Of a stretch of 64,000 bases of DNA, positions 4,753 to 62,515 are shown in pieces. The notes under the pieces are model-generated. The model was not told where the DNA came from, did no database searches, and saw only the letters and a program-made list of their open reading frames with translations. The translations under genes were made by a program, and so were the position numbers. The DNA comes from Candidatus Velesiimonas alkalicola. Lineage in GTDB: Bacteria; Omnitrophota; Gorgyraeia; Velesiimonadales; Velesiimonadaceae. Location: contig NDHX01000001.1 of assembly GCA_013626165.1 (NCBI GenBank), forward strand, positions 36,817 through 100,816, read 5' to 3'. Position 1 is the stretch's first letter; each line of letters begins with the position of its first letter.

Positions 4753-5653
4753 AAAACATTTGTTTTTTGTAAAAATTGGTATAAAAGAAGACAGAATCAG
4801 GCTGGATAGATTTATTTGCTTGATGCTTCCTGACGTTTCTCGTTCCTGTGTTCAGAGGTGGATAAAAGACGGTTTAGTGCTTGTTAATGAAAAGAAAGAA
4901 CCCTGCAACTACAGGGTAAAAGAAAACGATAAGGTAGAGGTATCTCCTCAAAAAACAAAAGTAACGGAATTTGTCAAATCCCAGGATATCCCCCTAGACA
5001 TTGTTTATGAAGATGAGCATCTCCTTGTAGTCAACAAACCAGCAGGTATGGTTATACATCCTGCACCCGGGCATTATGAGGGGACACTTGTCCATGCACT
5101 TCTCGGCAGGGTAAAAAAACTCTCAAAACTCGGGGGGGAGTTTAGGCCCGGTATTGTACACAGACTTGATAAAGATACATCAGGACTTATAATTGTTGCA
5201 AAGGATGAAAATGTACATTATAAGATTTCTGAACAATTTAAAAAAAGAGAGGTTTTTAAGTCTTATGTTGCAATTGTAAGCGGAAGGGTTAAACAGCAAC
5301 AGGGAACCATTGCCGCATCACTTGCAAGACATCCAAAAGATAGAAAAAAGTTTTGCATTCAGCATGATAAAGGAAGAGATGCAATAACAAACTACAAGGT
5401 TATAGAAAGAAAAAAGGATGCCACACTTCTTGATGTTTTTCCGATAACTGGAAGGACGCATCAGATAAGGATTCATCTTGCATATGCAAGACATCCAATA
5501 GTCGGCGATCCGGTATATGGAAAAAAACAAGGATTTGACAGACAGGCGCTACATGCCAGGATAATAGGTTTTCATCATCCGGTAACAAATAAATACTTAA
5601 AAATAGAATCACACCTGCCTGATGATATGAAAAAAATGTGGGAGTCTCTATAA
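4733..5653 (+). CDS. rluD: RluA-family 23S rRNA pseudouridine synthase (RluD-like) with N-terminal S4 domain
   Basis: Catalytic motif HRLDKDTSGLIIVAKD and an S4-like N-terminus. It overlaps the 3' end of lgt. Confidence 0.85.
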   Translation: MEHNEDKKHLFFVKIGIKEDRIRLDRFICLMLPDVSRSCVQRWIKDGLVLVNEKKEPCNYRVKENDKVEVSPQKTKVTEFVKSQDIPLDIVYEDEHLLVVNKPAGMVIHPAPGHYEGTLVHALLGRVKKLSKLGGEFRPGIVHRLDKDTSGLIIVAKDENVHYKISEQFKKREVFKSYVAIVSGRVKQQQGTIAASLARHPKDRKKFCIQHDKGRDAITNYKVIERKKDATLLDVFPITGRTHQIRIHLAYARHPIVGDPVYGKKQGFDRQALHARIIGFHHPVTNKYLKIESHLPDDMKKMWESL

Positions 5654-12860: not shown

Positions 12861-13334
12861 ATGCGTATTGCAGGTATTGACCCGGGCCTCTGTATAACAG
12901 GATATGGTATAGTTGAAAAAAAAGCCCATCAGCTACATCTTATTGATGCGGGGACTATACGAAATCCTGTTAGTTTCCCTCTTGAAAAAAGATTAAAAAG
13001 ATTGTTTGAGAATGTAGATATCTTATTTAAAGACCATAAGCCTGATGTTGTAGTAGTAGAAGAAATTTATTCTAACTATAAATATCCCTATACAGCGGTT
13101 CTTATGGGACATGCAAGAGGAATTATATATCTTGCATCAGCAGTCAATAGCATACCTGTGCACAGTTTTAAACCCACACATGTAAAAAAAGCAGCCACAG
13201 GCAACGGTCACGCATCAAAAGAACAGATAGCAGGTGCTATATGTTCAATATTCGGTATAAAGAGGTTTAAAGGATTTTTTGATGTTACAGATGCACTGGC
13301 ACTTACGGTTGCATATGAGCATCGGGTTCGGTAA
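12861..13334 (+). CDS. ruvC: Holliday junction resolvase RuvC
   Basis: MRIAGIDPGLCITGYGIV N-terminus with the catalytic Asp, 157 aa. Confidence 0.9.
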   Translation: MRIAGIDPGLCITGYGIVEKKAHQLHLIDAGTIRNPVSFPLEKRLKRLFENVDILFKDHKPDVVVVEEIYSNYKYPYTAVLMGHARGIIYLASAVNSIPVHSFKPTHVKKAATGNGHASKEQIAGAICSIFGIKRFKGFFDVTDALALTVAYEHRVR

Positions 13335-13336
13335 AT

Positions 13337-13432
13337 AGTAGGTAGAAGGTGGTAAGTAGTAGGTAGGAGGTAGGAGGTAGGAGGTAGTAGGAAATAAAAT
13401 CCCTATCTACAGTCTACTATCTACTACCTAAT
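13337..13432. repeat. Hairpin-forming GTAGG/TAGG-rich inverted-repeat element (copy 1)
   Basis: AATAGTAGGTAG(AAGGTGGTAAGTAGTAGGTAGGAGGTAGGAGGTAGGAGGTAGTAGG)...CCTATCTACAGTCTACTATCTACTACCT. The arms are reverse complements. A related copy lies at 29866-29990. Confidence 0.7.
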
Positions 13433-13469
13433 ACGATATACGGACAATGGAATTTAGGAGGATAATGGA

Positions 13470-14186
13470 ATGTATATATTTTTAATCTTTCTATTCTTGG
13501 TATTTGTGATATTCCCGTTTTTTTTCTTTTTTTATATTGCTATATTTTTAAAAGATGATATACAGGCTTGTTTTGAAAGAGACCCTGCCGCAATAAGTTT
13601 TTATGAGGTTTTGCTTACATATTCAGGGCTTCATGCGGTTGCATTCCACAGGATTGCTCACAGTTTATATATAAAGAAAATTCCGTTTTTACCAAGACTG
13701 ATTTCACAGATTGCAAGACATGTTACCGGTATAGAAATACATCCACTTGCAAGTATCGGAAAGGGATTGTTTATAGACCATGGGATGGGAGTTGTAATAG
13801 GTGAAACCTCTGTTGTGGGGGATAATGTTACACTATATCAGGGAGTTACGCTTGGAGGAACAGGGAAAGAAAAGGGGAAAAGACATCCTAATATTGGCAA
13901 TAATGTTGTAATAGGAGCGGGTGCAAAAATATTAGGAAACATAACCATAGGCGATAATGCGTTGATAGGTGCAAACAGCGTGGTAATAAAAGATATAGAT
14001 GAAAATTGCACGGTTGTAGGAGTTCCTGGCAGGATAGTAAGAAAAGGTGATGAAAGAATTTCTTCGCTTTTCCTTGACCATACTGCTTTACCTGATCCTA
14101 TCGTTGAAAGACTTGAGGAATTACAGAAAGAGATTATTAAGGTAGAGAGCATGTTAAAGGAAAAAAAAGAACATACAGACCGATAA
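13470..14186 (+). CDS. cysE: Serine O-acetyltransferase
   Basis: SAT N-terminal ERDPAA motif and left-handed beta-helix hexapeptide repeats ([20 protein letters not shown]...). The first ~25 residues are hydrophobic and T-homopolymer-rich, so the true start is uncertain (possibly GTG downstream). Confidence 0.8.
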
Positions 14187-14590
14187 GGTTAAAAAACTCT
14201 TAGATTGTAGATGTTATTAGCAAAATGAATTTGAGCAGTCTAATTTTACTATAATCCCCGATGTCAAATAACAAATGTCAAATCAATCCTGTTAGAGAAC
14301 TTAATATCTATAAACACTTTTGGCATTAAGTAGATCTCTGACAGGGTTCAGGGTCAAATGCTTAAATGTCAAGGGTTTTAGTCATTTGAGATTTGTCATT
14401 TGTCATTTGAGCTTTGGAATTTGGATTTATGTAAAAACTCAAAAAGAAAACCAAGTACTCATTTTCATCTTGCATACGACCTGCTGCATAGTAGAGGATA
14501 CAATGTTCTTTTTCAAGATAACTATGTAGAAAATGGTGTGCTTAATTATTGCAGGTAATCGGAAAAGAAATTCCACAGGAGGGGGGTAAG

Positions 14591-15498: not shown

Positions 15499-15829
15499 GG
15501 TAAAAGATTTAAAAAATTAAACGACCCGCTATTGTGGGTACCCCGAAGTCAAATTCCAAGCGCCACACCCAGAGGGTGTCCAAAATCCCAAAACCCTCAA
15601 TTCCGAAGTTTGTAATTTAAGATTTGAAAATTGAGTATTGTTTGGTTATTGTAATTTAGTTATTGTTTGGTGTTTCAGGCACCTTCTGGGTGTGGGATTT
15701 GTTCTAATTTTATGACACCTGATACATTATTTGTAATGATATTTGATTTTTGATATTTTAAAAAGGGGCTGGGCTTTTATAGAATAGACTCTTTCAGACT
15801 CGGTCCCTTTTTCATTTGATGGTAAATAT

Positions 15830-16675: not shown

Positions 16676-16760
16676 TGCTGTGTCAACTAATTGAGCCCTC
16701 GGAAGAAAATAGAGGAAAAAACTCCCAGAGTGCTCAGTTAGTTAAAAATTAAGGAGAAAT

Positions 16761-18975: not shown

Positions 18976-21027
18976 TTACACAACCCCAGTTTTTTCATCA
19001 AAGGTTTTACTATGAGCAGGGGTTGTATAAACATCAAATTCCGGAAGACGCAGGATTTCTTTCCCCTGCTTTTTGCAGGATACAGCCCAGTGCAGGTTTT
19101 CATCCATTGTTTGTATGTATTCCAATTTTATTGAAACCTCAAGGATTTTATCAAAATATGCCTCTATTATTCTCTCATCAGAAACATTTATCTTTCCTTT
19201 TTTGTCAAGTATTATGCTAATCTGAGTTTTTGTATCAGGGAATAAAAACATCAGTTCATCGCACTGTTGCACATCTTCAAAATCAACCCTGAAATATAAA
19301 AATACATCATTGAATCCGTACCATACCTTTTTTATAATTTTTTCCGTCCTTTGCATGGCCCCGAAATCAGGGTAAATGTAGCCTGCATCTGCCCATTCAA
19401 AATAATCTGTGTCAAGTCCGTCTAACTTAGGGTGTATTTTACACACTGGAAATTTGCCGGGCAGTGTCTTCGGTCTTTTTATAGGTATATGTAATTGGGG
19501 CGGAACATTCAGTCCTGCTTTTTCATATGCAGAAATAAGATATGCCCTGAACAGTCTATCAAACTCAAGTTTATTAAGTGTCTGATTGTCGTCTCCATAC
19601 CACCAGTTCCAGTCGCTTCCTTCTGCAGTGTATATGTGCTTTAGTATTTCACTATCATTGGTCTTTGAAAAAACATCTTCTCTTGCCTTATATAATAATT
19701 CCCAGGATTTGTTTTTTTCCGAATGTCCTATCCATATTTTAAATGTTCCGTCAACCCATGAGCCCGGAACAATATGAGAAAGGGACCTTGCATTTTCTTC
19801 AAAATTTTGTAGATACATAGAAGGGGTTACAGGTTTTATTTTGCTGTCGGATGATATTGTTTTATAAAGCGTTCTTAAAAAGTCTTCACCATCATTTTTG
19901 TAATATTCCCATGCATTTTCACCGTCAAGAACTATTGTTGCAATACAGGGTTTGGACTGTTTTAGCACATGTGTAAAGTCCAAAACAGCGTCCTTGGCCT
20001 CCCATTTTGAATATACAAACCCTATCCTGTCTGAAAGTATATGGTCTCTGAAAAACATATTGAGATTTGAAAATTTATATATACAGTTTCTCTCTTCACT
20101 TTTTAATCTGTTTCCTGTAGACCTTTCAAGTATGATTTCATCTGTTGCAACCCATTTTATGCCTGATGAACTTATTATATTTAAGGCCTCTTCACTTACA
20201 GAACCTTCTGATGGCCAGAGTCCCTGTGGCTGACTATTGAAGTATTTCTGATGAGAACATAAAGCCTCTCTTATATGCCACTCTGCATCTTCAGGGTGTT
20301 TAAACCTTATGTTTGGGAGTTTTGTATCGGGGTCGCTTATCTTTGCAATATCCGTATCGCAAAGAAGAGGCAGTATAGGATGAAAATAAGGGCTTGTGGA
20401 AATCTCAATTCTTTTTTCTTCCAATGCCTTTTTATAAGAAGGTATAATCCTTTTTATTATATCTATATGTTTTTGAAGAAGAACTGTTTGCTCTTGATAT
20501 GTAAAATCTCTTTGTTTTTGTATAAGACCTGTTAAAAAAGCATCATTTTTTATATGGAGAGGGTCTATCCATACAAGGTTAAACCATACGATAATATCTG
20601 TTATATCTTGCTCTGTAAAACTGTCACTTACACTTTTCAATGAACAGGGATCTGTTCTTGCGCCTCTTTTATAAAAAAGTTGCGCGTATCTTTTATGGGG
20701 AAGTATCATTGTGGGCGGATTACAGAGAAAGAAGTTTGAAATGACAAACAGTTTTTCCTCTTCCGTCATGCCTTGCGCTTTTAATTGTGAGATATGATAA
20801 AACCTATCTGTTTTGCCTTTTGTGTAACCATCTATCTGTTCCAAAAGTGATGGAACAAAATTAAATGTTATGAAAAGACCGGGGAATTCTTCTGTTATAA
20901 GAAGCATATCAAGATAGTCTTTTATACAGTGAAGCCTAACCCAGGGAAGTATAAACTCACCTGTTTTGGGATCCTCATAACAGGGTTGGTGCATATGCCA
21001 GATTATAGAAAGATAGATTTCAGACAT
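18976..21027 (-). CDS. Glycoside hydrolase family 57 enzyme (alpha-glucan branching enzyme / amylopullulanase-like)
   Basis: N-terminus IWHMHQPCY...WVRLHCIKDYLDM is characteristic of the GH57 catalytic domain. 683 aa with a C-terminal helical domain. Confidence 0.8.
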   Translation of the reverse strand: MSEIYLSIIWHMHQPCYEDPKTGEFILPWVRLHCIKDYLDMLLITEEFPGLFITFNFVPSLLEQIDGYTKGKTDRFYHISQLKAQGMTEEEKLFVISNFFLCNPPTMILPHKRYAQLFYKRGARTDPCSLKSVSDSFTEQDITDIIVWFNLVWIDPLHIKNDAFLTGLIQKQRDFTYQEQTVLLQKHIDIIKRIIPSYKKALEEKRIEISTSPYFHPILPLLCDTDIAKISDPDTKLPNIRFKHPEDAEWHIREALCSHQKYFNSQPQGLWPSEGSVSEEALNIISSSGIKWVATDEIILERSTGNRLKSEERNCIYKFSNLNMFFRDHILSDRIGFVYSKWEAKDAVLDFTHVLKQSKPCIATIVLDGENAWEYYKNDGEDFLRTLYKTISSDSKIKPVTPSMYLQNFEENARSLSHIVPGSWVDGTFKIWIGHSEKNKSWELLYKAREDVFSKTNDSEILKHIYTAEGSDWNWWYGDDNQTLNKLEFDRLFRAYLISAYEKAGLNVPPQLHIPIKRPKTLPGKFPVCKIHPKLDGLDTDYFEWADAGYIYPDFGAMQRTEKIIKKVWYGFNDVFLYFRVDFEDVQQCDELMFLFPDTKTQISIILDKKGKINVSDERIIEAYFDKILEVSIKLEYIQTMDENLHWAVSCKKQGKEILRLPEFDVYTTPAHSKTFDEKTGVV

Positions 21028-21099
21028 AATATGTAGGGTCTTCTGAAAAACTCCTATCAGACCCTGATTCCACAGATTAAAAAACAGATTACACAGATA

Positions 21100-21132
21100 A
21101 ACCCCGTTAGAGATCTACTTCTAAACGGGACA
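21100..21132. repeat. Palindromic mini-element CCCCGTTAGA-n-TTCTAAACGGG (intergenic copy)
   Basis: AAACCCCGTTAGAGATCTACTTCTAAACGGGAC. The same arms occur twice in tandem inside glgA (27844-27915). Confidence 0.7.
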
Positions 21133-21189
21133 AAACAAATTTTTAATCTGTGTAATCTTTTCAAAATCTGTGTAATCAATAGTATTTAA

Positions 21190-24810: not shown

Positions 24811-25192
24811 ATTTTTTAGTTTTATAAAATATTGCATTATTTAAAAATAAAGATTATAATATGGCACAGGAGTTTGTTACCCAACTGCCAAACCCAAATA
24901 GTCCATAGACATAGATTATGGACTGTAAGTTTAAATTTTTCCCTGTTGTTGTTCAGCCGATTTTAATTTCTATCTATAAATTTTAAATTAAGATGGAATG
25001 GGGTTGTGGTGTTCACGGGCCCCTTAATACTGCATATGAATTAGAACTGAATATTACATATTTTCTCACCCTGACAAAAGCCATTCTTTTAAGAATATAA
25101 CCTTCAACAATGTGATTACAAATTATTCCCCTTTATAGAAAGGGAATTATAGCAAAATATTTAACCTTTGAAACTTAAGGAGAGCATCTTAA

Positions 25193-27738: not shown

Positions 27739-29232
27739 ATGATAAAGGTTTTATATTGTGCATCAGAGGCAGTTCCTTTTGTCAAAACAGGCGGGCTTGG
27801 GGATGTTGCAGGTTCACTGCCAAGATTTATAAAAGCACAAGGTGTTGACCCTGTTAGAAATAAAAAATTTCTAAACGGGGTTGACCCCGTTAGAAATAAA
27901 AAATTTCTAAACGGGGTTGATATAAGAATGGCAATCCCTTATCACAAAAAATTCATCAGTAAGAATTATTTAACAAAAGAGGTTTCACCTGGTATTTATC
28001 AGGGTTGGGAAAAAAATGTGCCTGTATATTTTATAGACCAGCCCCAATATTTTGACCGTGGCGGTATGTATGGAGATGAGAAGGGTGATTATACTGATAA
28101 TTTGGAAAGATTTGTTGCATTTTGTGAAGAAATTCTTAAAATAGTCAATAACACTGGTTTTATTCCTGATATAATACACTGCAATGATTGGCAGACTGCG
28201 CTGATACCTGTTTTTATTGCCGACCGTTCAAAGTCCGATAAAATCCTTTCTTCAATAAAAACAATCTTGACGATACACAATATGAGTTATCAGGGTATTT
28301 TCCCGTTAAAAGATGCCGACAGGATTAAGGTGAGCAGGGAATTTTTTACATCCCATGCGCTTGAATATGATGGCAGACTCAATCTTTTAAAAGCGGGGAT
28401 ATTATATTCTGATTTTATTACAGCAGTAAGTCCGACCTACGCAAAAGAGATACAAACACAGGAACTAGGGTTTGGATTAGATGGAGTGCTTAAAAAAAGA
28501 AGCAACAAAATTTTTGGGATTCTCAACGGCATTTATAATATTAAATGGGACCCTCAGAAAGATAAAGCAATAAAACAAAATTATAGTAGCGAGGATATTC
28601 TGTTAAGAAAAATCAATAAAGAATTTTTACAAAAAATCTGCGGTCTTGAGGTTTCTGACAGACCATTGGCTGGAATGGTTGCCCGCCTGGTAGAACAAAA
28701 GGGATTGGATATCTTAATACCTGCTATTCCAAAACTTATTGAACAGGGCTGGCAGGTTGTCGTATTAGGCACAGGCATGGAAAATTATCATCACCTTCTT
28801 CGTAATCTTACAGAGCAGTACTGTAAAAATTTTTTTGTTGCATTAAGATTTGATGATATTTTCGCAAGACAGATATATGCAGGAAGCGATGTTTTTATTG
28901 TTCCTTCAAGGTATGAGCCTTGCGGAATAAGTCATATGATTGCAGCAAGGTATGGGGCCGTTCCTGTGGTAAGAAAAACAGGAGGACTTGCCGATACTGT
29001 CCAAGATATTTCACTGCGGGATTTAAGTTCCACACATATGCGGGGTTTGGGTTTTGTTTTTAATGATTATAGTGCAGATGTATTCTCTAACTGCATGCAG
29101 AGGGCAAAAAATGCTTTTCAGGACAAGCCAGCGTGGAATGAGATTATAAAAAAGAATATGCAAGAGGATTTTTCATGGGAGTATTCCGCAAAAGAATACG
29201 TAGGGATATATAATAGATCAGTAAGCCCTTAA
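27739..29232 (+). CDS. glgA: Glycogen synthase (GT5), carrying an in-frame 24-aa tandem-repeat insertion
   Basis: N-terminal KTGGLGDV motif and GT-B fold. The insertion GVD[PVRNKKFLNGVD]x2 interrupts the loop that normally reads ...GVDIR. Confidence 0.9.
   Translation: MIKVLYCASEAVPFVKTGGLGDVAGSLPRFIKAQGVDPVRNKKFLNGVDPVRNKKFLNGVDIRMAIPYHKKFISKNYLTKEVSPGIYQGWEKNVPVYFIDQPQYFDRGGMYGDEKGDYTDNLERFVAFCEEILKIVNNTGFIPDIIHCNDWQTALIPVFIADRSKSDKILSSIKTILTIHNMSYQGIFPLKDADRIKVSREFFTSHALEYDGRLNLLKAGILYSDFITAVSPTYAKEIQTQELGFGLDGVLKKRSNKIFGILNGIYNIKWDPQKDKAIKQNYSSEDILLRKINKEFLQKICGLEVSDRPLAGMVARLVEQKGLDILIPAIPKLIEQGWQVVVLGTGMENYHHLLRNLTEQYCKNFFVALRFDDIFARQIYAGSDVFIVPSRYEPCGISHMIAARYGAVPVVRKTGGLADTVQDISLRDLSSTHMRGLGFVFNDYSADVFSNCMQRAKNAFQDKPAWNEIIKKNMQEDFSWEYSAKEYVGIYNRSVSP
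27844..27915. repeat. 2 x 36 bp perfect-but-one tandem repeat of a palindromic unit (GTTGACCC(Y)GTTAGAAATAAAAAATTTCTAAACGGG) inside glgA
   Basis: Direct reading of the sequence. The units differ at a single base. Each unit is an imperfect palindrome sharing the CCCCGTTAGA...TTCTAAACGGG arms with 21100-21132. Confidence 0.85.
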
Positions 29233-29280: not shown

Positions 29281-29895
29281 ATGAAAATAATAGGGTTAAC
29301 AGGTTGTATAGGTTCAGGGAAAACAACGGTTGCAAAAATTTTAAAAAGGCTTGGAGCGCAGATTATAGAAGCAGATGCTGTCTCGCATCAGCTCATCCAG
29401 CCAACGCACACAGGGCCCTTAAATGCATGGAAAAAGGTAGTAAAGATTTTTGGCACAGATATACTTTCTGCCGATAATAGAATTGACAGGAAAAAACTTT
29501 CTGAGATTGTATTTTCTAACCCTTCTTGTTTAAGGAAATTAGAATCTATCCTTCATCCTATGATTATAAATAATATAAAAAAACAGATTTTATATTTTAA
29601 AAAACAATCGGCAAGTTTTATTGTTATTGAAGCTCCTCTTTTAATAGAAACCGGCCTTGATAAAATTGTTGATAAAATAATAGTTGTAAAAACCCCGCAA
29701 GATATAAGATTAAGAAGAGTGTCCAAAAAACTTAAAATCACCATCAAAGATGTAAAAGAAAGAGAAAAACATCAATTAACACAGAAACAAAAACTGAAAT
29801 ATGCAGATTTTGTTATAGATAATTCAGGAAGCATTAAAGAAACAAGAAAACAAGTGGAAAAAATAGTAGGTAGTATTGTAGGAGGTAGTAGGTAG
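29281..29895 (+). CDS. coaE: Dephospho-CoA kinase
   Basis: P-loop GLTGCIGSGKTT at the N-terminus, 204 aa. The last ~10 codons are encoded by a repeat element. Confidence 0.85.
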   Translation: MKIIGLTGCIGSGKTTVAKILKRLGAQIIEADAVSHQLIQPTHTGPLNAWKKVVKIFGTDILSADNRIDRKKLSEIVFSNPSCLRKLESILHPMIINNIKKQILYFKKQSASFIVIEAPLLIETGLDKIVDKIIVVKTPQDIRLRRVSKKLKITIKDVKEREKHQLTQKQKLKYADFVIDNSGSIKETRKQVEKIVGSIVGGSR

Positions 29896-29990
29896 GAGGA
29901 TGATTGGCACTCCATAGGACATAGTCCATCGACTATGGACTAAGTTCATTCCCTATCTACTACCTACTATTCCCTGCCTACTATGTTTAA
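29866..29990. repeat. Hairpin-forming GTAGG/TAGG-rich inverted-repeat element (copy 2) with an internal TAGTCCAT/ATGGACTA palindrome
   Basis: AATAGTAGGTAGTATTGTAGGAGGTAGTAGGTAGGAGG ... CCCTATCTACTACCTACTATTCCCTGCCTACTAT. The left arm overlaps the coaE 3' end. Confidence 0.7.
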
Positions 29991-29998
29991 GGAGAAAT

Positions 29999-40723: not shown

Positions 40724-40959
40724 TGTTGGTGAAAACACTGGATCAGGGATAAGATAACCATGGTCTGGGGAGTAGCTCGGTTATATTATAGGTTGTATTT
40801 TTTTCTGGGGCTTAATTGACCCTGTGAAGAAGATCAATCAAGCCTATAACCGAATAGTCACCATAGGATTTGGCCCAGAATAGGAGGATGGTGTTTACCG
40901 ACAAATAGCACTGCTTCAGAAAACTACAACCAAAGAAAAGAGTGTAGCGATGAAGAAAT

Positions 40960-41445
40960 AAATAGGAGTAGATGGACACAAGACAAGGGTGTAGAAGCAT
41001 TCAAGAAGACACTGAATAAGAGCAATGAGGCAGCGGTAGAATCAACAGGCAACACTTATGTATTTGCCAGAAAGATAAAGGGCAAAGTTAAGGCAGTCAG
41101 GATAATCAATCCTACGCAATTTAAGATTATCTCTGCTTTAAGTGAAGAAAACAGATGAGCACGATACGGTAACAATAAGCAAGGTATTTTAAGCAAAGGG
41201 TTAATCCTAAGAGATAAGGATGCTCAACAAAAGAAGAATTGCAGATAGCCAGTCTCATATGCACACGGGATAAATTTGTAAAGCTAAGAAATTGTTTAAA
41301 AAATAAAATCTACAATATCTTTAATGCTAATGATATAATTATCAAGCGTGAAGTTTTTGGTTCCAAGAAAAAATTAGATAAAGTTTTGGCCCTTGATATT
41401 AAATTAAGCTATCAATTTGAGCAGAAGATAATTGTTAAGTAGATA
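40960..41445 (+). mobile_element. Degraded IS110-family transposase (multiple frameshifted fragments)
   Basis: The fragments IGVDGHKTRV*, ...AAVESTGNTYVFARKIKGKVKAVRIINPTQFKIISALSEENR* and ...TRDKFVKLRNCLKNKIYNIF... match the IS110 N-terminal and middle motifs (VGIDxxK, EATGxY...NP...K.FA, R.L...R..L...NRI) in three frames. Confidence 0.6.
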
Positions 41446-41758
41446 CACAGCCTTAACAATTCAATTGACAAGATAAACGAAGAACTTAACAAAGAAGTGT
41501 AAGAAATTACAGCATTAGTGCAATCAATGTTCATTGCGATAAGGTATAATCTGTATTTAAAAAAATTTTATTTCAGACCTAAAGCCAAAAAAGGGCAGTG
41601 GCAAGGCAATTTATAGATACCACTAGAAAGTTTTTAACTATAATTTACCGTATCTTAAAGAATAAATGAGTGTTTGAAGATTTTAATAAATTCAAACTAG
41701 CGATAAATATTTAATAATACGGTTTTTAAAGTAGAAAATTATTGACTGTTAACATAGG

Positions 41759-49246: not shown

Positions 49247-49343
49247 AACGAACTGTTATGGGTGGATGACTATTAGATTGTAGTTGCCTATATCCCAAAT
49301 AACCTAAAAGAAGACAGTCTGAACAACCTGAATAGTAGCCTAT

Positions 49344-50818: not shown

Positions 50819-50967
50819 CCTGAGGACTTTGACCCTAAACGAAGTGAAGAAGAAGGGGACGAAGAATCTCGTGAAACCCTTCAGCCCTTTAGGCTTCAGG
50901 ATGAACTTTCGGAAGAAAATAGAGTAAAAAAACTCCCCGAGGGTTCAAATAACTCTGTTATCTTTCG

Positions 50968-54060: not shown

Positions 54061-54128
54061 TTTTAAACCTCCGGTTTAAACCAAAAATCCAAACGGCGAA
54101 TCTCAAATGACAAAATCCAAATCATTTG

Positions 54129-55037
54129 TCATTTGACATTTACCCTTGCTCCATCTTTAAGACCGAAATGGCCTCCAATGATTACCCTATCTTGAGGCTC
54201 AACCCCTGAGACAATCTCCATACTATCTTTGGTAACTATTCCGGTCTGTACTTTTCTTATTTTAGCCACGGAGTCCTCTACTACATAGACTATTTCCTGG
54301 CTATCTTTTACTAAAACGGCATCCCGGGGAACAATGAGCACATCTTGACGCTTATTAGTAATAAGTTTTACCCGGGCAAACATCCCTGGTTTTAGTTTAT
54401 GTTCCGGATTATCAATAGTTATTTCTACCGGCGCCCGGCGCAAGACAATATCAACCACTGGACTTACGATGAAAACCTCCCCCTTAAAGACCTCCTCGGG
54501 ATAGGCATCCAGGCGCACCTCGGCATTTTGACCTCTAACTATTTTTGGCAAATCCCTCTCCGGCACATCTACCCGAATTTTAACCCTATCCATATTTATT
54601 ATAAGAGCTAGCGGGTTCTGGGAAGTGACACTCATTCCTCTATCTATATAGACTCTGCCTACCACTCCATCAATGGGCGACTCTACAGGAGCCTTCTCAA
54701 ATTCAAAACCTACTACATCGCGGTCAATAAGAAAAAGGGTATCTCCTTTCTTTGCTAAATCACCCTCTCTGACGAGTTTTTCTACAATCTTACCAGGGAC
54801 TTTAGGAAAAATAGTTACCTCATCCTCAGCCTTTATGTCACCCACAAAAGAGAGTGTCTCTCTCATAGTGCCTTTTTCTACCTCAGCCACCTTCACATAA
54901 ACAGGCATTCTTTCCTTCTCAATAACCTCTTCTCCTTCCCTGCCACAACCGGTTAAGAACAGAGAACAGAGGGCAGAGAAGAGAAAACAGAAAAACCTAA
55001 CTTTTGATTTCTGACTTCTAATGTGTAGAGTAGACAT
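54129..55037 (-). CDS. RND efflux periplasmic adaptor (membrane fusion protein, HlyD/AcrA family)
   Basis: Lipobox LTGC, with biotinyl-lipoyl and beta-barrel MFP domains. Confidence 0.85.
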   Translation of the reverse strand: MSTLHIRSQKSKVRFFCFLFSALCSLFLTGCGREGEEVIEKERMPVYVKVAEVEKGTMRETLSFVGDIKAEDEVTIFPKVPGKIVEKLVREGDLAKKGDTLFLIDRDVVGFEFEKAPVESPIDGVVGRVYIDRGMSVTSQNPLALIINMDRVKIRVDVPERDLPKIVRGQNAEVRLDAYPEEVFKGEVFIVSPVVDIVLRRAPVEITIDNPEHKLKPGMFARVKLITNKRQDVLIVPRDAVLVKDSQEIVYVVEDSVAKIRKVQTGIVTKDSMEIVSGVEPQDRVIIGGHFGLKDGARVNVK

Positions 55038-55129: not shown

Positions 55130-56473
55130 TTACTCTCCTCCTGTAACATAATCCAATTTAGCCCTGGCTACTATAAAATCATAAAGACTCTGGGCATAAT
55201 TTAGCTGAGCCGTTGATAAGGCAACCCGGGCATCCAACAAGTCTAATTGCATCGCTTCACCCCGAATATGCCTGTGTCTTATAATCTCATATGCCTTTTC
55301 AGCTCGGATTATATTCACTTTTTGAGCCTCTACAATTCTCCGGGCAGATTCTAAATCCAAAATAGTATTTTTTACTTCAATTTTTATATTATCAGTTAGT
55401 TTATTCCTTAAGATGCGGACCCTTTCCTTTCTAACTCCTGCCTCCTTTACTTTTGCGCGGGTTAAAAAACCATCAAATATAGGCATGCTTACGGAAACAG
55501 TGGCTACCCAGTAATCATCATATTCTCCTCTACCCACAGTGAATGCCTCTTTCTGATTGGCAAAATTGGTAAAATTAAGCCCCACCTGAGGCAGATACCC
55601 TGAAAAAGCCACTCGAACTTGCGCCTCGGCTGCTTCTTCCTGCAAAATCATCTCTTTTAATGCTGGCCTTATCTGTAGGGCCCGGGCAAGTTTTTCTTCT
55701 AAGTTAATTTCCTCCTCTAAGATATAATCAAACTCTCCTTTTATTTTGATTTCCCGGGCCGGCGAAATTCCCACTAAAATTTTCAAGAAATTATAAGAGG
55801 TCTTGAGAAAGTTTTCTGCCTTTATGAGCTGAGGTCTAATATTGGCTACCTCAACCTCACTTCTTAAAACCTCATAATGCGATGCCTCTCCTTTTCGGAA
55901 ACGTTTTTCCGTTACCACCAGACTCTCTTCGGCCAATCCCAGGGTCTTTTTTCTAATCTGCACAAACTCTTCAGCCAGCAGGATACCGTAGAAGGCCTGT
56001 TTTGTTTGGAAGACAATTTTGTTCTCCATCTCTTTTTGGCTTTCCTTTGTTGCCCTTAAATCCTTGCGGGCTGAATCTATAGTATTAGCCACTCTTCCTC
56101 CTGCAAAGAGCAATTGGTCTACGGAAAAACTATAACCACGATTATCTTCAAAAGGAATAAAAGGGTGGTTCTCATAACGGGCATAATAGGCACTGCCCCT
56201 TATAGACGGGAAAATAGCCGAATGAGCCTGAGTAAGCCGGGCAGAAGCCTCTTTTATCTCTTCTTTTTTAGCCAAAATATCGTGATTATTCTTCAGGGCA
56301 AGCTCTATAGCCTTTTCTTTAGATAAAATTATAACTTCTTTGTCAGCGCTCATATCTCTGCTATCAACTTTGTCGGTGGCTTTCTCTGATAAAGCAAAAC
56401 AAGTTTGCGGCAAAAACAAAAGAGGAAGAATCAGGATAAGATAACTGGCCTTTTTTTTATTATGTAGATTCAT
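55130..56473 (-). CDS. TolC-family outer-membrane efflux protein
   Basis: Signal peptide, and two internal repeats of the OEP alpha-helical/beta-barrel repeat, 447 aa. Confidence 0.85.
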   Translation of the reverse strand: MNLHNKKKASYLILILPLLFLPQTCFALSEKATDKVDSRDMSADKEVIILSKEKAIELALKNNHDILAKKEEIKEASARLTQAHSAIFPSIRGSAYYARYENHPFIPFEDNRGYSFSVDQLLFAGGRVANTIDSARKDLRATKESQKEMENKIVFQTKQAFYGILLAEEFVQIRKKTLGLAEESLVVTEKRFRKGEASHYEVLRSEVEVANIRPQLIKAENFLKTSYNFLKILVGISPAREIKIKGEFDYILEEEINLEEKLARALQIRPALKEMILQEEAAEAQVRVAFSGYLPQVGLNFTNFANQKEAFTVGRGEYDDYWVATVSVSMPIFDGFLTRAKVKEAGVRKERVRILRNKLTDNIKIEVKNTILDLESARRIVEAQKVNIIRAEKAYEIIRHRHIRGEAMQLDLLDARVALSTAQLNYAQSLYDFIVARAKLDYVTGGE

Positions 56474-57090
56474 TTCTTTACCTCACACTTTATCCCTTCA
56501 GAAATTATTGTCAAGACAACATTTCTTATTCCCTTTAAGGGAAATTCTTTGCTGTCGGTAACCCAGCGAATCATCAAGCCATCAAGAGTGGCTAAAATTA
56601 CCGAAGCGGCACGATCTGGTTTTAGGTCTTTCCTGAATACGCCGGCCGTTATCCCTTCTTTGATATAAGAGGAAAGCGTCTTTTTGTAATCCTTATAAAT
56701 CTGTCGCATCTTTAAAATAAGCGGGCTTTCCTTCTTTCTTTTTCTTATCCGGGGCCATATTTCCAAAAAGACAAGACAGAAGTCTTTAAACTCTTCAAAA
56801 CTTGAAATGCTGAGATTGATAAATTCTTTAATCCTTTGCCCGGGTTCACTTATTAAAGAAACTTTCTTAATACAGGTGTTCTTAAATTCATCCATAAAAT
56901 ATGAGCATAACTCCAAAAACAGTTTTTCCTTACCCGAGAAATATTCATAGATAGTGCCCTTGCCCATATCGGCTGCTCTGGCAATCTCATCCATTCGGCT
57001 TGGGTAAAATCCTTTTTTAGAGAACACTCTTAAAGCAGCATTAAAAATTCTTTCCCTCTTCTTTTTCTTATCAACAACAATTGGCGACAT
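56470..57090 (-). CDS. TetR/AcrR-family transcriptional regulator
   Basis: N-terminal HTH (IARAADMGKGTIYEYF). Overlaps the tolC start, so it is the first gene of the operon. Confidence 0.85.
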   Translation of the reverse strand: MSPIVVDKKKKRERIFNAALRVFSKKGFYPSRMDEIARAADMGKGTIYEYFSGKEKLFLELCSYFMDEFKNTCIKKVSLISEPGQRIKEFINLSISSFEEFKDFCLVFLEIWPRIRKRKKESPLILKMRQIYKDYKKTLSSYIKEGITAGVFRKDLKPDRAASVILATLDGLMIRWVTDSKEFPLKGIRNVVLTIISEGIKCEVKK

Positions 57091-57550
57091 AAAAAGACTC
57101 TCCTTTTTCGTAGTCTACAATGACCGTCTGGTCAGTCACTATAACTATACACAAAATCCGCTTCCCTGTCAAGTATTATTTTTTTTCTCTCATAATTTTT
57201 TTCTCCCCCCCCCTGCATTATTACTCTTTCTGCTATTTCTCATTATACACAGTAGCAAAACTTATAGCTATATCGTCGGTAAACCTTGTTAGAAAGTCCG
57301 GAAATATCCTTATATCCGAAACTTCACAAAACTTTTAAAAAAGCTTCGTAACCACAGATTACAAAAACCCGAGGACACAGATTTTCTTTTGAAGTAATCT
57401 GGGTAATCTGCCTGTTAATCTGTGTGATCAAGTATAGAAAGTGGTTTATACTTTCCTATACTTCAAGAAATCACTTGACACCAAAGATATTAATCGGTAT
57501 ACTAATAAATAGTTAGGCACACGAAGTTTTAATTAATTATAGGGGTTCTC

Positions 57551-58015
57551 ATGAAAAAAGAGGAAGTAAGCAGATTTATTTCACAATTGGATGATTTGCT
57601 CCCCACTTTAATCAAACATTTTCAGATTTCCAATCCTTATAAATTATTTAGAGTTAAGATTACATTGCAGCAGTACTTAACACTGAATGCACTGGCTAAG
57701 AGTGGTAAGTGCATGGTAAGCGAATTAAGTAAAACTATGAATGTGGCTTTAAGCACAATGACCGAATTAATCAACCGCTTAGCAAAAAGAGGCTTTATCT
57801 GCAAGAATAGAGATATAAAAGATAATCGTATAGTCTGGGTTAATTTAACCAATAAAGGGCAGGAGATCTTTCACAGTATGACAAAAAAGAAACAGAAGCA
57901 TATCTCTGACATCTTAGGGAAATTAGTCCATATTGAGCGTCAGACTCTAATTGATATATTAAAAACAGTCTCTCGGGCTGCTAATGAAATAGGAATGCAG
58001 AAGATTAATGGCTAA
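57551..58015 (+). CDS. MarR-family transcriptional regulator
   Basis: Winged-helix MarR core (LTLQQYLTLNALAKSGKCMVSELSKTMNVALSTMTELINRL). Confidence 0.8.
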   Translation: MKKEEVSRFISQLDDLLPTLIKHFQISNPYKLFRVKITLQQYLTLNALAKSGKCMVSELSKTMNVALSTMTELINRLAKRGFICKNRDIKDNRIVWVNLTNKGQEIFHSMTKKKQKHISDILGKLVHIERQTLIDILKTVSRAANEIGMQKING

Positions 58016-62152: not shown

Positions 62153-62515
62153 TGATTTGGTCAGGTCATTTCCGCTGACTGTCTCTTTCAGCTTTGTGGG
62201 GATAATGGTCAGAAACTGCAGAGGTTCGTTGCATAGTTCTCATTTGTGTAGTATAATTATAAAGGAAAGTCAACTGTTCAGGTGGATAGACTGTTAGACT
62301 GTAGGTGCCCACAGCCTAAATAACTTGAATACTAAGGTTACATTGATTTGGTGTTAAGCAACAGGCGACAGGGACAGGTGACTGGAAAACAGAAAAAAAC
62401 GAAAACACTAAGATTCTTAGTCACACACACCTTTTGTCCGCCTACTTATAATTTATGGAAAGTCCATTAGGCAGATACAATCTCAAGATTTCCCTAAAAA
62501 GAGAGGATAACTAAG

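Follow-up and report, generated by a model that had tools for sequence, protein, structure and literature searches.

What kind of element fills the spacer directly behind ruvC in the stretch of 64,000 nt that was analysed (the window)? The initial annotation had treated it as the first of two loci of a GTAGG/TAGG-rich hairpin repeat, the second lying between coaE and rho, and had called both REP/MITE-like. That the two loci represent one family of structured, hairpin-forming repeats is borne out by further copies on other contigs of the same organism, which are discussed below. Both loci have the same architecture, with a 5' arm of (GTAGKAG)n, a loop and a 3' arm of CTAC-type units, and both are wedged between a stop codon and the following ribosome-binding site (Table 1). 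The term 'REP/MITE-like' stands as a loose description but not as membership of either class, as the arms are arrays with a variable number of 7 nt units and there is no fixed terminal inverted repeat. We class the loci as heptanucleotide SSRs related to STRR/LSSR repeats, arranged as dispersed polar hairpins. On balance we favour, if only modestly, the view that they are hairpin-forming inverted heptanucleotide simple-sequence arrays, a dispersed and fast-evolving family that is driven by slippage and is mainly spacer filler.

Copy 1 was said to lie directly after the ruvC stop codon, and its array does begin 1 nt past the TAA. The units of the 5' arm are, in order, TAGTAGG, TAGAAGG, TGGTAAG, TAGGAGG three times and TAGTAGG, and TRF finds both arms to be periodic at 7, with 8.0 copies at 13336-13391 and 4.0 copies at 13403-13430. 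The 3' array, in which the G-free arm CCCTATCTACAGTCTACTATCTACTACCT covers 13401-13429, complements the 5' array imperfectly. The predicted fold (-34.5 kcal/mol, z -2.6) is weaker than that of copy 2 and ambiguous in register, because the 5' arm has about twice the length of the 3' arm and several 7 nt registers can pair; three surplus AGGAGG units are left unpaired in it. The 3' tail is AATACGAT, with no T-tract.

For copy 2 the locus had been placed correctly but the edges, given as 29866-29990, had not: the element begins 3-4 nt earlier and finishes about 6 nt earlier. The stop codon of coaE is a TAG of the copy 2 array (29893-29895), and the final 11 CoaE codons overlap the left arm, a use of the arm in the coaE frame that had been overlooked, as had the heptamer unit itself and the presence of heptamer hairpins built of other units. 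TRF reports 3.1 copies of a period-7 array at 29878-29899. The ends of copy 2 are inverted, ATAGTAGGTAG ... CTGCCTACTAT, but these are the outermost units of the arrays and differ between copies. The predicted fold is very stable (-62.3 kcal/mol, z -7.5), so that hairpins are predicted at both loci as had been proposed, and the 3' tail, GTTTAAGG, again has no T-tract. The nested palindrome in the centre is of the TAGTCCA/TGGACTA type, which recurs at 24897-24927 in the window and is present as a full array hairpin in a sister species (L133:1643-1724).

Table 1. Coordinates of the two hairpins, of the genes and other hairpins around them, and of related loci on other contigs of the same organism. 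Positions are those of the window unless a contig is named.
Feature	Position	Strand	Remarks
ruvC ORF	12861-13334	+	Pfam RuvC; TAA stop at 13332-13334
AATAGTAGGTAG in copy 1	13334-13345		
Copy 1, whole hairpin	13335-13433	+	Element length 98 nt
Copy 1, 5' arm	13335..13391	+	C-free, G-rich tandem heptamer array, 57 nt
Copy 1, loop AAATAAAAT	13392-13400	+	
Copy 1, 3' arm	13401..13433	+	Array CCCTATCTAC AGTCTAC TATCTAC TACCT(AATA)
SD TAGGAGG	13455-13461	+	3' of copy 1
Serine-acetyltransferase-like gene, ATG	13470	+	Downstream of copy 1; start 37 nt after stem
Long hairpin, GTCAAAT/ATTTGAC	14255-14432		
Long hairpin, other heptamer unit	15555-15700		
Long hairpin, CAGATTA/TAATCTG	21060-21182		
coaE ORF	29281-29895	+	C-terminus …KIVGSIVGGSR encoded by copy 2 array
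AATAGTAGGTAG in copy 2	29862-29873		
Copy 2, whole hairpin	29863-29984	+	122 nt
Copy 2, 5' G-arm ATAGTAGGTAGTATTGTAGGAGGTAGTAGGTAGGAGG	29863..29899	+	
Copy 2, central region	29900..29950	+	Holds nested palindrome
Nested palindrome CCATAGGACATAGTCCATCGACTATGGACTAAG	29912-29944	+	Other heptamer type, TAGTCCA/TGGACTA
Copy 2, 3' C-arm CCCTATCTACTACCTACTATTCCCTGCCTACTAT	29951..29984	+	
SD AAGGAG	29989-29994	+	After copy 2
rho ATG	29999	+	13 nt after copy 2 stem
Long hairpin, other heptamer unit	54061-54150		
Long hairpin, CAGATTA/TAATCTG	57340-57440		
Full hairpin in panB 5' leader	L145:1555-1632		z -5.8
Partnerless G-arm	L145:5210-5258		Ends one ORF and provides aspartate kinase Shine-Dalgarno
Hairpin between tRNA-Glu and cysS 3' end	L143:9078-9190		z -5.8

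The shared start, the tandem units and the complementary closing arm that had been noted for the two copies are confirmed by their positions, by TRF and by shuffle controls. In the window GTAGGAGGTAG has 7 matches with at most one mismatch where 0.55 are expected, and none of 100 shuffles reaches 7; AATAGTAGGTAG has 5 matches where 0.32 are expected, and again no shuffle attains the observed value. As perfect-repeat detection misses degenerate arrays, a lag analysis was used instead. It gives 84 intergenic scan windows periodic at lag 7 and no more than 3 at each of the other lags from 4 to 11 (shuffle mean 0.07), and at a threshold of 15 of 21 the periodic scan windows number 87 in intergenic and 10 in coding DNA. 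Seven is the sole periodicity of intergenic DNA in this window. TRF finds further period-7 arrays of different units at 14261-14283, 14381-14409, 15737-15758 and 54122-54141, and there are also several long hairpins built of other heptamers (Table 1). For all six strong hairpins of the window the sense RNA folds better than the antisense, yet the z-scores are similar. With Rfam 15 at the gathering score only a tRNA was matched in the window, the hairpins being without a match, and below it, as at an E-value threshold, the hairpins gave generic look-alikes of miRNA precursors only. Small palindromes are present within genes too, at 27841-27912.

With regard to the organism, RuvC is identical to 'hypothetical protein B9J78_00265 [bacterium Unc6]', the best named relatives of Rho are in Candidatus Omnitrophota, and identical genes are present in metagenome assemblies from The Cedars serpentinising springs. 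A metagenome scan with the pattern TAGTAGGTAGN{26,56}CCCTATCTAC returned 44 loci, two of which, L143 and L145, are from The Cedars, have a GC content of 0.36-0.37 and encode proteins identical to, or clustering with, 'bacterium Unc6' proteins on other contigs. The search for further copies that the initial annotation proposed has thus found them, and 'bacterium Unc6' carries at least five GTAG-type loci. In the L145 hairpin an AAATAAG at 1593-1599 resembles the loop of copy 1. All four full Unc6 hairpins open the 3' arm with CCCTATCTAC, even where pairing is imperfect, and this common unit is weak evidence for common descent of the Unc6 copies, as the search pattern itself demanded CCCTATCTAC for L143 and L145 and the independent sharing is that of copies 1 and 2 only.

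There are also differences between strains, which the initial annotation had suggested looking for, and they are found at both loci. Among contigs with identical RuvC, copy 1 differs by exactly one 7 nt unit and in the order of the units. Contigs in which Rho is 100% identical are of two kinds, with the window and L127 having copy 2, and L128, L129 and L131 having GGTGACCGGTTACCTGTCGCCTTTAT, an unrelated 26 nt between the same flanks. The GGTGACCGGTTACCTGTCGCCTTTAT allele changes the C-terminus of CoaE but not its length (…KMVTGYLSPLF), and its predicted fold is a hairpin of 6 bp with UUUAUUUU behind it. Strains that have the copy 2 hairpin and strains that lack it share one spring. The background is about 99.7% identical, and the SNPs nearest to the replacement are about 390 nt upstream and about 450 nt downstream. 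Import by recombination was considered for this polymorphism and rejected, as the surrounding 390-450 nt or so are free of SNPs. The change at copy 2 is a local replacement, and neither an imported tract nor a clean insertion or excision. In place of the hairpin at 21033-21188, L127 and L128 have about 22 nt, and in that case recombination import is possible as the flank is only 97% identical. Thus 7 nt units are gained, lost and reordered between near-identical strains, and entire hairpins are acquired, lost or exchanged where the background is otherwise identical. One uncultured population thereby offers a tractable natural system, with alleles that have or lack a hairpin and alleles that differ by a single 7 nt unit.

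The family is not confined to this organism. In a scan of genome contigs three or more perfect GTAGKAG units were found at 120 loci at least, in very diverse genomes, and among the matches listed the hosts include Bacteroidales, Pleurocapsales, Sulfurovum, Elusimicrobia, Saccharimonadales and Planctomycetes. A complementary arm is present for about 20 of the 107 arrays, about one in five, among the matches listed. About 30 of the 44 metagenome loci have the full architecture, …AAAGTAGATAGTAGGTAGTAGATAGGG – variable loop – CCCTATCTACTACCTACTATCTACTTT…, on contigs with a GC content of 0.46-0.71. Nine contigs from one sample represent an Elusimicrobia genome of about 55% GC (TrmD 90% identical to 'Elusimicrobia bacterium'), and its hairpins form subfamilies with conserved loops at different loci, which argues for copying between loci. 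Family hairpins typically occupy the entire spacer, mostly at -13 to +20 nt from the flanking ORFs, and of the GTAGKAG arrays 32 are in tandem, 17 in convergent and 6 in divergent spacers. The pairing of each 5' arm with its own and with foreign 3' arms is much the same (-37.6 and -37.2 kcal/mol respectively, p 0.74), a comparison that has no power for copy-specific covariation because the arms are too similar.

Heptameric repeats have been recognised for decades. The heptanucleotide STRR repeats of cyanobacteria were reportedly described by Mazel et al. in 1990, and Elhai et al. are said to have described in 2008, for Nostoc, heptamer repeats that have small dispersed repeats nested within them. 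The loci discussed here have the properties of heptanucleotide SSRs, with a tandem 7 nt unit, variation in unit number among close relatives and a non-coding location. They are also like STRR/LSSR repeats in that the arrays are intergenic and variable in copy number with several units per genome, and in that repeat-rich genomes are phylogenetically scattered, as some of the Omnitrophota sampled here have arrays and others do not. They differ in that the arrays are inverted pairs that form long hairpins of fixed polarity, with the G-rich, stop-bearing arm on the 5' side, and in that one hairpin type recurs at many loci in several phyla. From what is reported of the work of Mrazek (2007, via PMC4692102 and PMC4679880), scattered bacterial genomes have an excess of heptameric SSRs, and in many bacteria heptamers are more common than any other long SSR, with slippage of the polymerase, at the polymerase footprint, proposed as the cause. 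Within the incomplete coverage of our literature search we found no description of a GTAG-heptamer hairpin family, of its recurrence across phyla or of its polarity rule, and no bacterial paper containing the motif strings in full text.

On the reading that we favour, arrays would arise and be remodelled by replication slippage in 7 nt steps, a bias that is on record for heptameric SSRs of bacteria, and the complementary arm would arise or be maintained by intra-strand template switching or inter-locus copying, and not by cut-and-paste transposition. Most of the hairpins would then be tolerated as 'spacer filler' and are probably ordinary 'junk-like' repeats, with the tolerance in spacers best accounted for by the immediate termination of translation. 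If the loci are transcribed, translation would be halted at the foot of the stem, and a stem-loop of -35 to -62 kcal/mol would follow between the cistrons; by analogy with REP/BIME sequences it could give 3'-end protection or partial termination, or be a target of RNase III. Such a generic role is favoured by the position behind stop codons, by the hairpin kept at coaE-rho in a sister species, by the small hairpin with a U-rich tail that the alternative allele has there, and by the A- and T-tracts that flank a subset of the family. The 13-37 nt between the stem and the next gene are too few for a promoter, and transcription must therefore read through. Some findings go against slippage as the whole account. 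The shared loops in Elusimicrobia and the common CCCTATCTAC in Unc6 point to inter-locus copying, which looks real, the sharp-edged replacement of copy 2 is explained neither by slippage nor by simple deletion, and a neutral slippage model does not predict so strict a G-first rule.

That rule concerns the order of the two arms. An inverted repeat may be G-arm-first or C-arm-first, and each topology is identical on both strands. In the unbiased set given by the genome scan the partner arm is downstream for 20 arrays and upstream for none, among the matches listed; the stricter motif test over all loci gave 44 G-first and 0 C-first, and the GTAG-type hairpins among those found by periodicity alone are G-first in 47 of 47 cases. 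The bias extends to the 36 heptamer-array hairpins of other units (31 unit types), in which the 5' arm has more G than C in 31 and fewer in 5 (p 1e-5), and is purine-rich in 28 as against 7; more of the stop trinucleotides face outward in 22 as against 5 (p 0.0015). In contrast the non-periodic hairpins of the same sequences have no G-first bias (52 vs 38 intergenic, p 0.17). In viral contigs the G-first and C-first patterns have one match each, which is too few to be informative. For both window copies translation that arrives from either side, in any frame, reaches a stop within 2-32 nt, whereas in arm-swapped versions it could run for 52-93 nt. The polarity may be explained by selection for outward-facing stops, by selection to keep an RNA arm rich in C and poor in G from being exposed to Rho, or by an origin that is itself directional, for instance through fold-back of G-rich 3' ends. 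It is doubtful, but worth stating, that heptamer-array hairpins are a distinct cross-phylum repeat class with a built-in direction, either made by a directional process or selected as caps. The process might be snap-back synthesis from G-rich 3' ends, or involve a single-strand nuclease or transposase that recognises GTAG; as caps, the hairpins would be 'translation-insulated' mRNA ends working in both directions, with ribosomes halted before the stem and the C-rich arm hidden from Rho. The G-first, stop-out polarity, being absent from ordinary hairpins, is a constraint on any model of origin or function, and together with the natural allele series it merits the attention of specialists.

The alternative with most in its favour is that the hairpins are non-autonomous mobile elements, MITE- or REPIN-like and mobilised in trans, for instance by a RAYT-type Y1 enzyme that recognises GTAG. 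We consider this unlikely, although it would account for a good deal: copies are scattered over unrelated loci of one genome, presence and absence vary in a near-identical background, loop subfamilies are conserved across Elusimicrobia loci, and the same arm sequences are found in genomes with GC contents from 0.36 to 0.71. The likeness to REP, BIME and REPIN sequences is also considerable, as all are dispersed, extragenic and hairpin-forming, have a GTAG motif and occur as inverted dimers with GTAG outside, chiefly behind genes, in spacers that are tandem or convergent and less often divergent. In REPs GTAG forms the conserved head, and the favoured dimers are head-out, with GTAG outside (PMC3733652), which matches the topology seen here. 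However a REP is a 20-40 nt imperfect GC-rich palindrome with a single conserved GTAG, unpaired, at one end (PMC3733652), whereas the elements here are 98 and 122 nt with stems of 30-57 nt made of AT-rich heptamer arrays, in which GTAG comes every 7 nt and is base-paired in the predicted stem. REP membership is therefore not supported, given the size, the stem type and the unpaired single GTAG. The resemblance to MITEs lies in the small size (about 100-125 nt), the inverted-repeat ends, the intergenic location and the presence or absence among strains, but the arms are low-complexity arrays of variable length, with units that vary in number and order and no fixed ends, and the alternative allele is a replacement. 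The flanks of copy 2, AAAAAAT / element / GTTTAAGGAG, have no target-site duplication, a feature that the initial annotation had suggested looking for, and there is no empty site among the alternative alleles; MITE membership is not supported on these two grounds. The window ORFs that were scanned (25 of 105 families listed) gave no transposase or RAYT, no candidate for a related autonomous IS with matching ends was seen in the window, and other hairpins in the window use heptamers without GTAG.

It is also possible, but quite unlikely, that each hairpin is a selected, locus-specific cis-regulatory RNA, either a terminator or attenuator before rho, or a stabilising or processing stem-loop that uncouples the cistrons. 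The position right behind stop codons and just ahead of ribosome-binding sites is what one might expect of such an RNA, and the coaE-rho hairpin is retained in a sister species whose DNA is about 77% identical (L133; Rho 87% identical), where the orthologous GTAG hairpin has no nested palindrome and ends in UAUUUUU. The alternative allele at the same spot in the Unc6 strains also has a small hairpin followed by UUUAUUUU, although a weak one (z -1.6). In a subset of the family there is an A-tract upstream and a T-tract downstream, and the two tracts pair with each other in the folds; over motif-defined ends the T-tract downstream is modest, with 3.6 T in 8 nt where 1.9 are expected and four or more T in 15 of 33. 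As compared with an intrinsic terminator, taken as a GC-rich stem of 5-20 bp, a loop of 3-8 nt and a T-tract, the window hairpins share the location of the stem-loop directly behind a gene, with U-rich tails in the alternative allele and the sister version, but their stems are far longer, AT-rich and without a T-tract, and a terminator scan gave no terminator-like site at either window locus. For copy 1 there is no such conservation: in the sister species ruvC is followed by hairpins of a quite different kind and by a CTGGTGC heptamer array. Most of the Omnitrophota examined have a coaE-rho spacer free of hairpins: the more distant ones have the same gene order with a spacer of 10-14 nt in which the stop codon overlaps the SD, and two of the three have no period-7 arrays in 21 kb, the third having heptamer hairpins of other units. 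These short spacers and the differences in the sister species indicate that the hairpins are lineage-specific additions with rapid turnover. Regulation in cis also fits poorly with the coexistence of strains with and without the hairpin in one spring, and with the orientation of defined-loop elements to the flanking genes, which is either way (3 vs 4). The advantage in stability that the sense strand has in this window is not consistent outside it, the metagenome set being split about evenly, and the sense-strand preference of GTAGKAG arrays (21 vs 11) is not significant.

A very unlikely reading is that the G-rich arm alone is what matters, as a multivalent binding array of SD-like AGGAGG, of CsrA-like GGA, of a two-tetrad G-quadruplex or of sites for a regulator that binds dsDNA. 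The TAGGAGG unit does include the canonical SD core, the surplus AGGAGG units of copy 1 are predicted to be unpaired, the partnerless G-arm on L145 supplies the SD of the next gene, and most GTAGKAG arrays among the matches listed have no partner arm. There are related proposals for two other heptamers. The TAACTGA repeats of marine Beggiatoaceae, Cyanobacteria and Bacteroidetes (MacGregor 2015, PMC4679880) are likewise heptamers with stop codons found a few nt from start codons, and in that case also one unit is present in distant phyla with no transfer mechanism known, but they are direct repeats, with 1 indirect case in 170 (PMC4679880), whereas those discussed here are inverted hairpin pairs. 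The GGGAATC/GGGGAYT repeats of Xanthomonas and Nostoc (Rehm et al. 2015, PMC4692102) are G-rich intergenic heptamers that differ in length among close relatives, and some are convergent inverted pairs, but they have G3-4 tracts and were studied as G-quadruplexes (PMC4692102), whereas here there are GG runs only, which are too short for stable quadruplexes, and a paired partner arm. As modelled, the complementary arm would sequester most of the G-arm at both window loci. In addition many members of the family are built of GTAGATA or GTAGTAG and have no GGAGG, and no binding protein was identified.

That the two loci resemble each other through chance likeness of low-complexity sequence, or as an artefact of short-read assemblies, several of which break or leave N gaps within the copy 1 array, is practically negligible, as the shuffle controls contradict chance, an ortholog is found in another species, and recovery of the same sequences independently in several metagenome assemblies and sequencing runs effectively refutes artefact. 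Hairpin arrays of this type do break short-read assemblies, and they extend or truncate the 3' ends of genes, as for coaE, and can create ribosome-binding sites, and for these reasons they affect genome annotation in candidate phyla.

Outside this lineage, genomes with GTAG-type hairpins (G-rich GTAGKAG heptamer arrays with a CTAC-type 3' arm) or period-7 arrays also contain hairpins built from very different heptamers. In L164 and L182, contigs of such genomes, the units are GAGGCTT/AAGCCTC, CCAATTA/TAATTGG and AAGGCAAAAG-type, and the formation of heptamer hairpins therefore looks like a trait of the genome and not of a single sequence.

Coordinates of hairpins, repeats and related features (z, fold-stability score)
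Feature	Location	Setting	Predicted fold
Heptamer hairpins, units unlike GTAG type	L164:289-372; L182:20309-20422 and 20739-20852	other lineages	
TAGTCCA/TGGACTA hairpin	window 24897-24927	stands alone	
TAGTCCA/TGGACTA hairpin	window 29912-29944	nested in loop of GTAG-type copy 2 (coaE-rho)	
TAGTCCA/TGGACTA full array hairpin	L133:1643-1724	after rho, sister species	
CAGATTA/TAATCTG heptamer hairpin, 156 nt	window 21033-21188	between ORF start and tRNA-Arg	
Composite of GTCAAAT and ATTTGAC heptamers	window 14255-14432		-55 kcal/mol, z -4.9
Long hairpin	window 15555-15700		-50.7 kcal/mol, z -5.5
G-rich GTAG-type array without complementary arm	L145:5210-5258	same organism as window	
36-nt tandem repeat, 2 copies (GGTGTTGACCCTGTTAGAAATAAAAAATTTCTAAAC / GGGGTTGACCCCGTTAGAAATAAAAAATTTCTAAAC)	window 27841-27912	in frame within starch/glycogen-synthase-like ORF 27739-29232	
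30-nt element TGARCYYTCGGAAGAAAATAGAGKAAAAAA, two copies, 87% identical	window 16692-16721 and 50902-50931		
~35-nt motif ACTGTTnnGGnGGATnGACTnTTAGAnTGTAGnTG, 3 copies	window 14179-14213, 49252-49286 and 62273-62307		
Homopolymer tract T7CTC9	window 57197-57214	spacer of divergent genes	

TAGTCCA/TGGACTA is a second type of heptamer hairpin, found in three settings in the window and the sister species. Hairpins are found nested within hairpins, which suggests that the loops are favoured sites for landing or growth. The CAGATTA/TAATCTG hairpin has a nested palindrome, CCCGTTAGAGATCTACTTCTAAACGGG, at 21103-21129, and the composite structure contains a long one, CCTGTTAGAGA…TCTCTGACAGG (14288-14345), and has a relative in the ATTTGAC hairpin at 54061-54150. 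Both palindromes are of a CCYGTTAGA type that recurs at 27850. The hairpin at 15555-15700 has GC-rich outer arms, CCACACCCAGAGGGTG / CACCTTCTGGGTGTGG, and inner arms that are A/C-rich and then T/G-rich, with approximate periodicity.

The near-identical strain contigs L127 and L128, both from metagenomes, have about 22 nt (AAATTCCTTTTCAAGATAGATA) in place of the entire CAGATTA/TAATCTG segment, and identity to them over the adjoining 940 nt is only 97%, compared with 99.7% elsewhere. The 36-nt repeats insert GVDPVRNKKFLN twice close to the N-terminal active-site region of the synthase-like protein, and each copy includes the palindrome CCYGTTAGAAA…TTTCTAAACGGG. Copy number may be variable here, as the same two independent assemblies have N gaps at exactly this position.

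The unpaired array in L145, another contig of this organism, overlaps the 3' end of an ORF, and its final unit, GATAGGAGGTAAC, is the Shine-Dalgarno sequence of an aspartate kinase gene (ATG at 5270).

The 30-nt element is a further small dispersed repeat, with its copies in unrelated spacers and each within a small hairpin. All three copies of the ~35-nt motif lie immediately past a gene end; predicted structure is weak, with z about 0 for the second and third copies. The window is densely packed except for about 1 kb (40724-41758) with no ORF of at least 70 codons, possibly a degenerate gene or insertion sequence. The T7CTC9 tract lies between genes at 56470-57090 (minus strand) and 57551-58015 (MarR-like), and such tracts can change in length.
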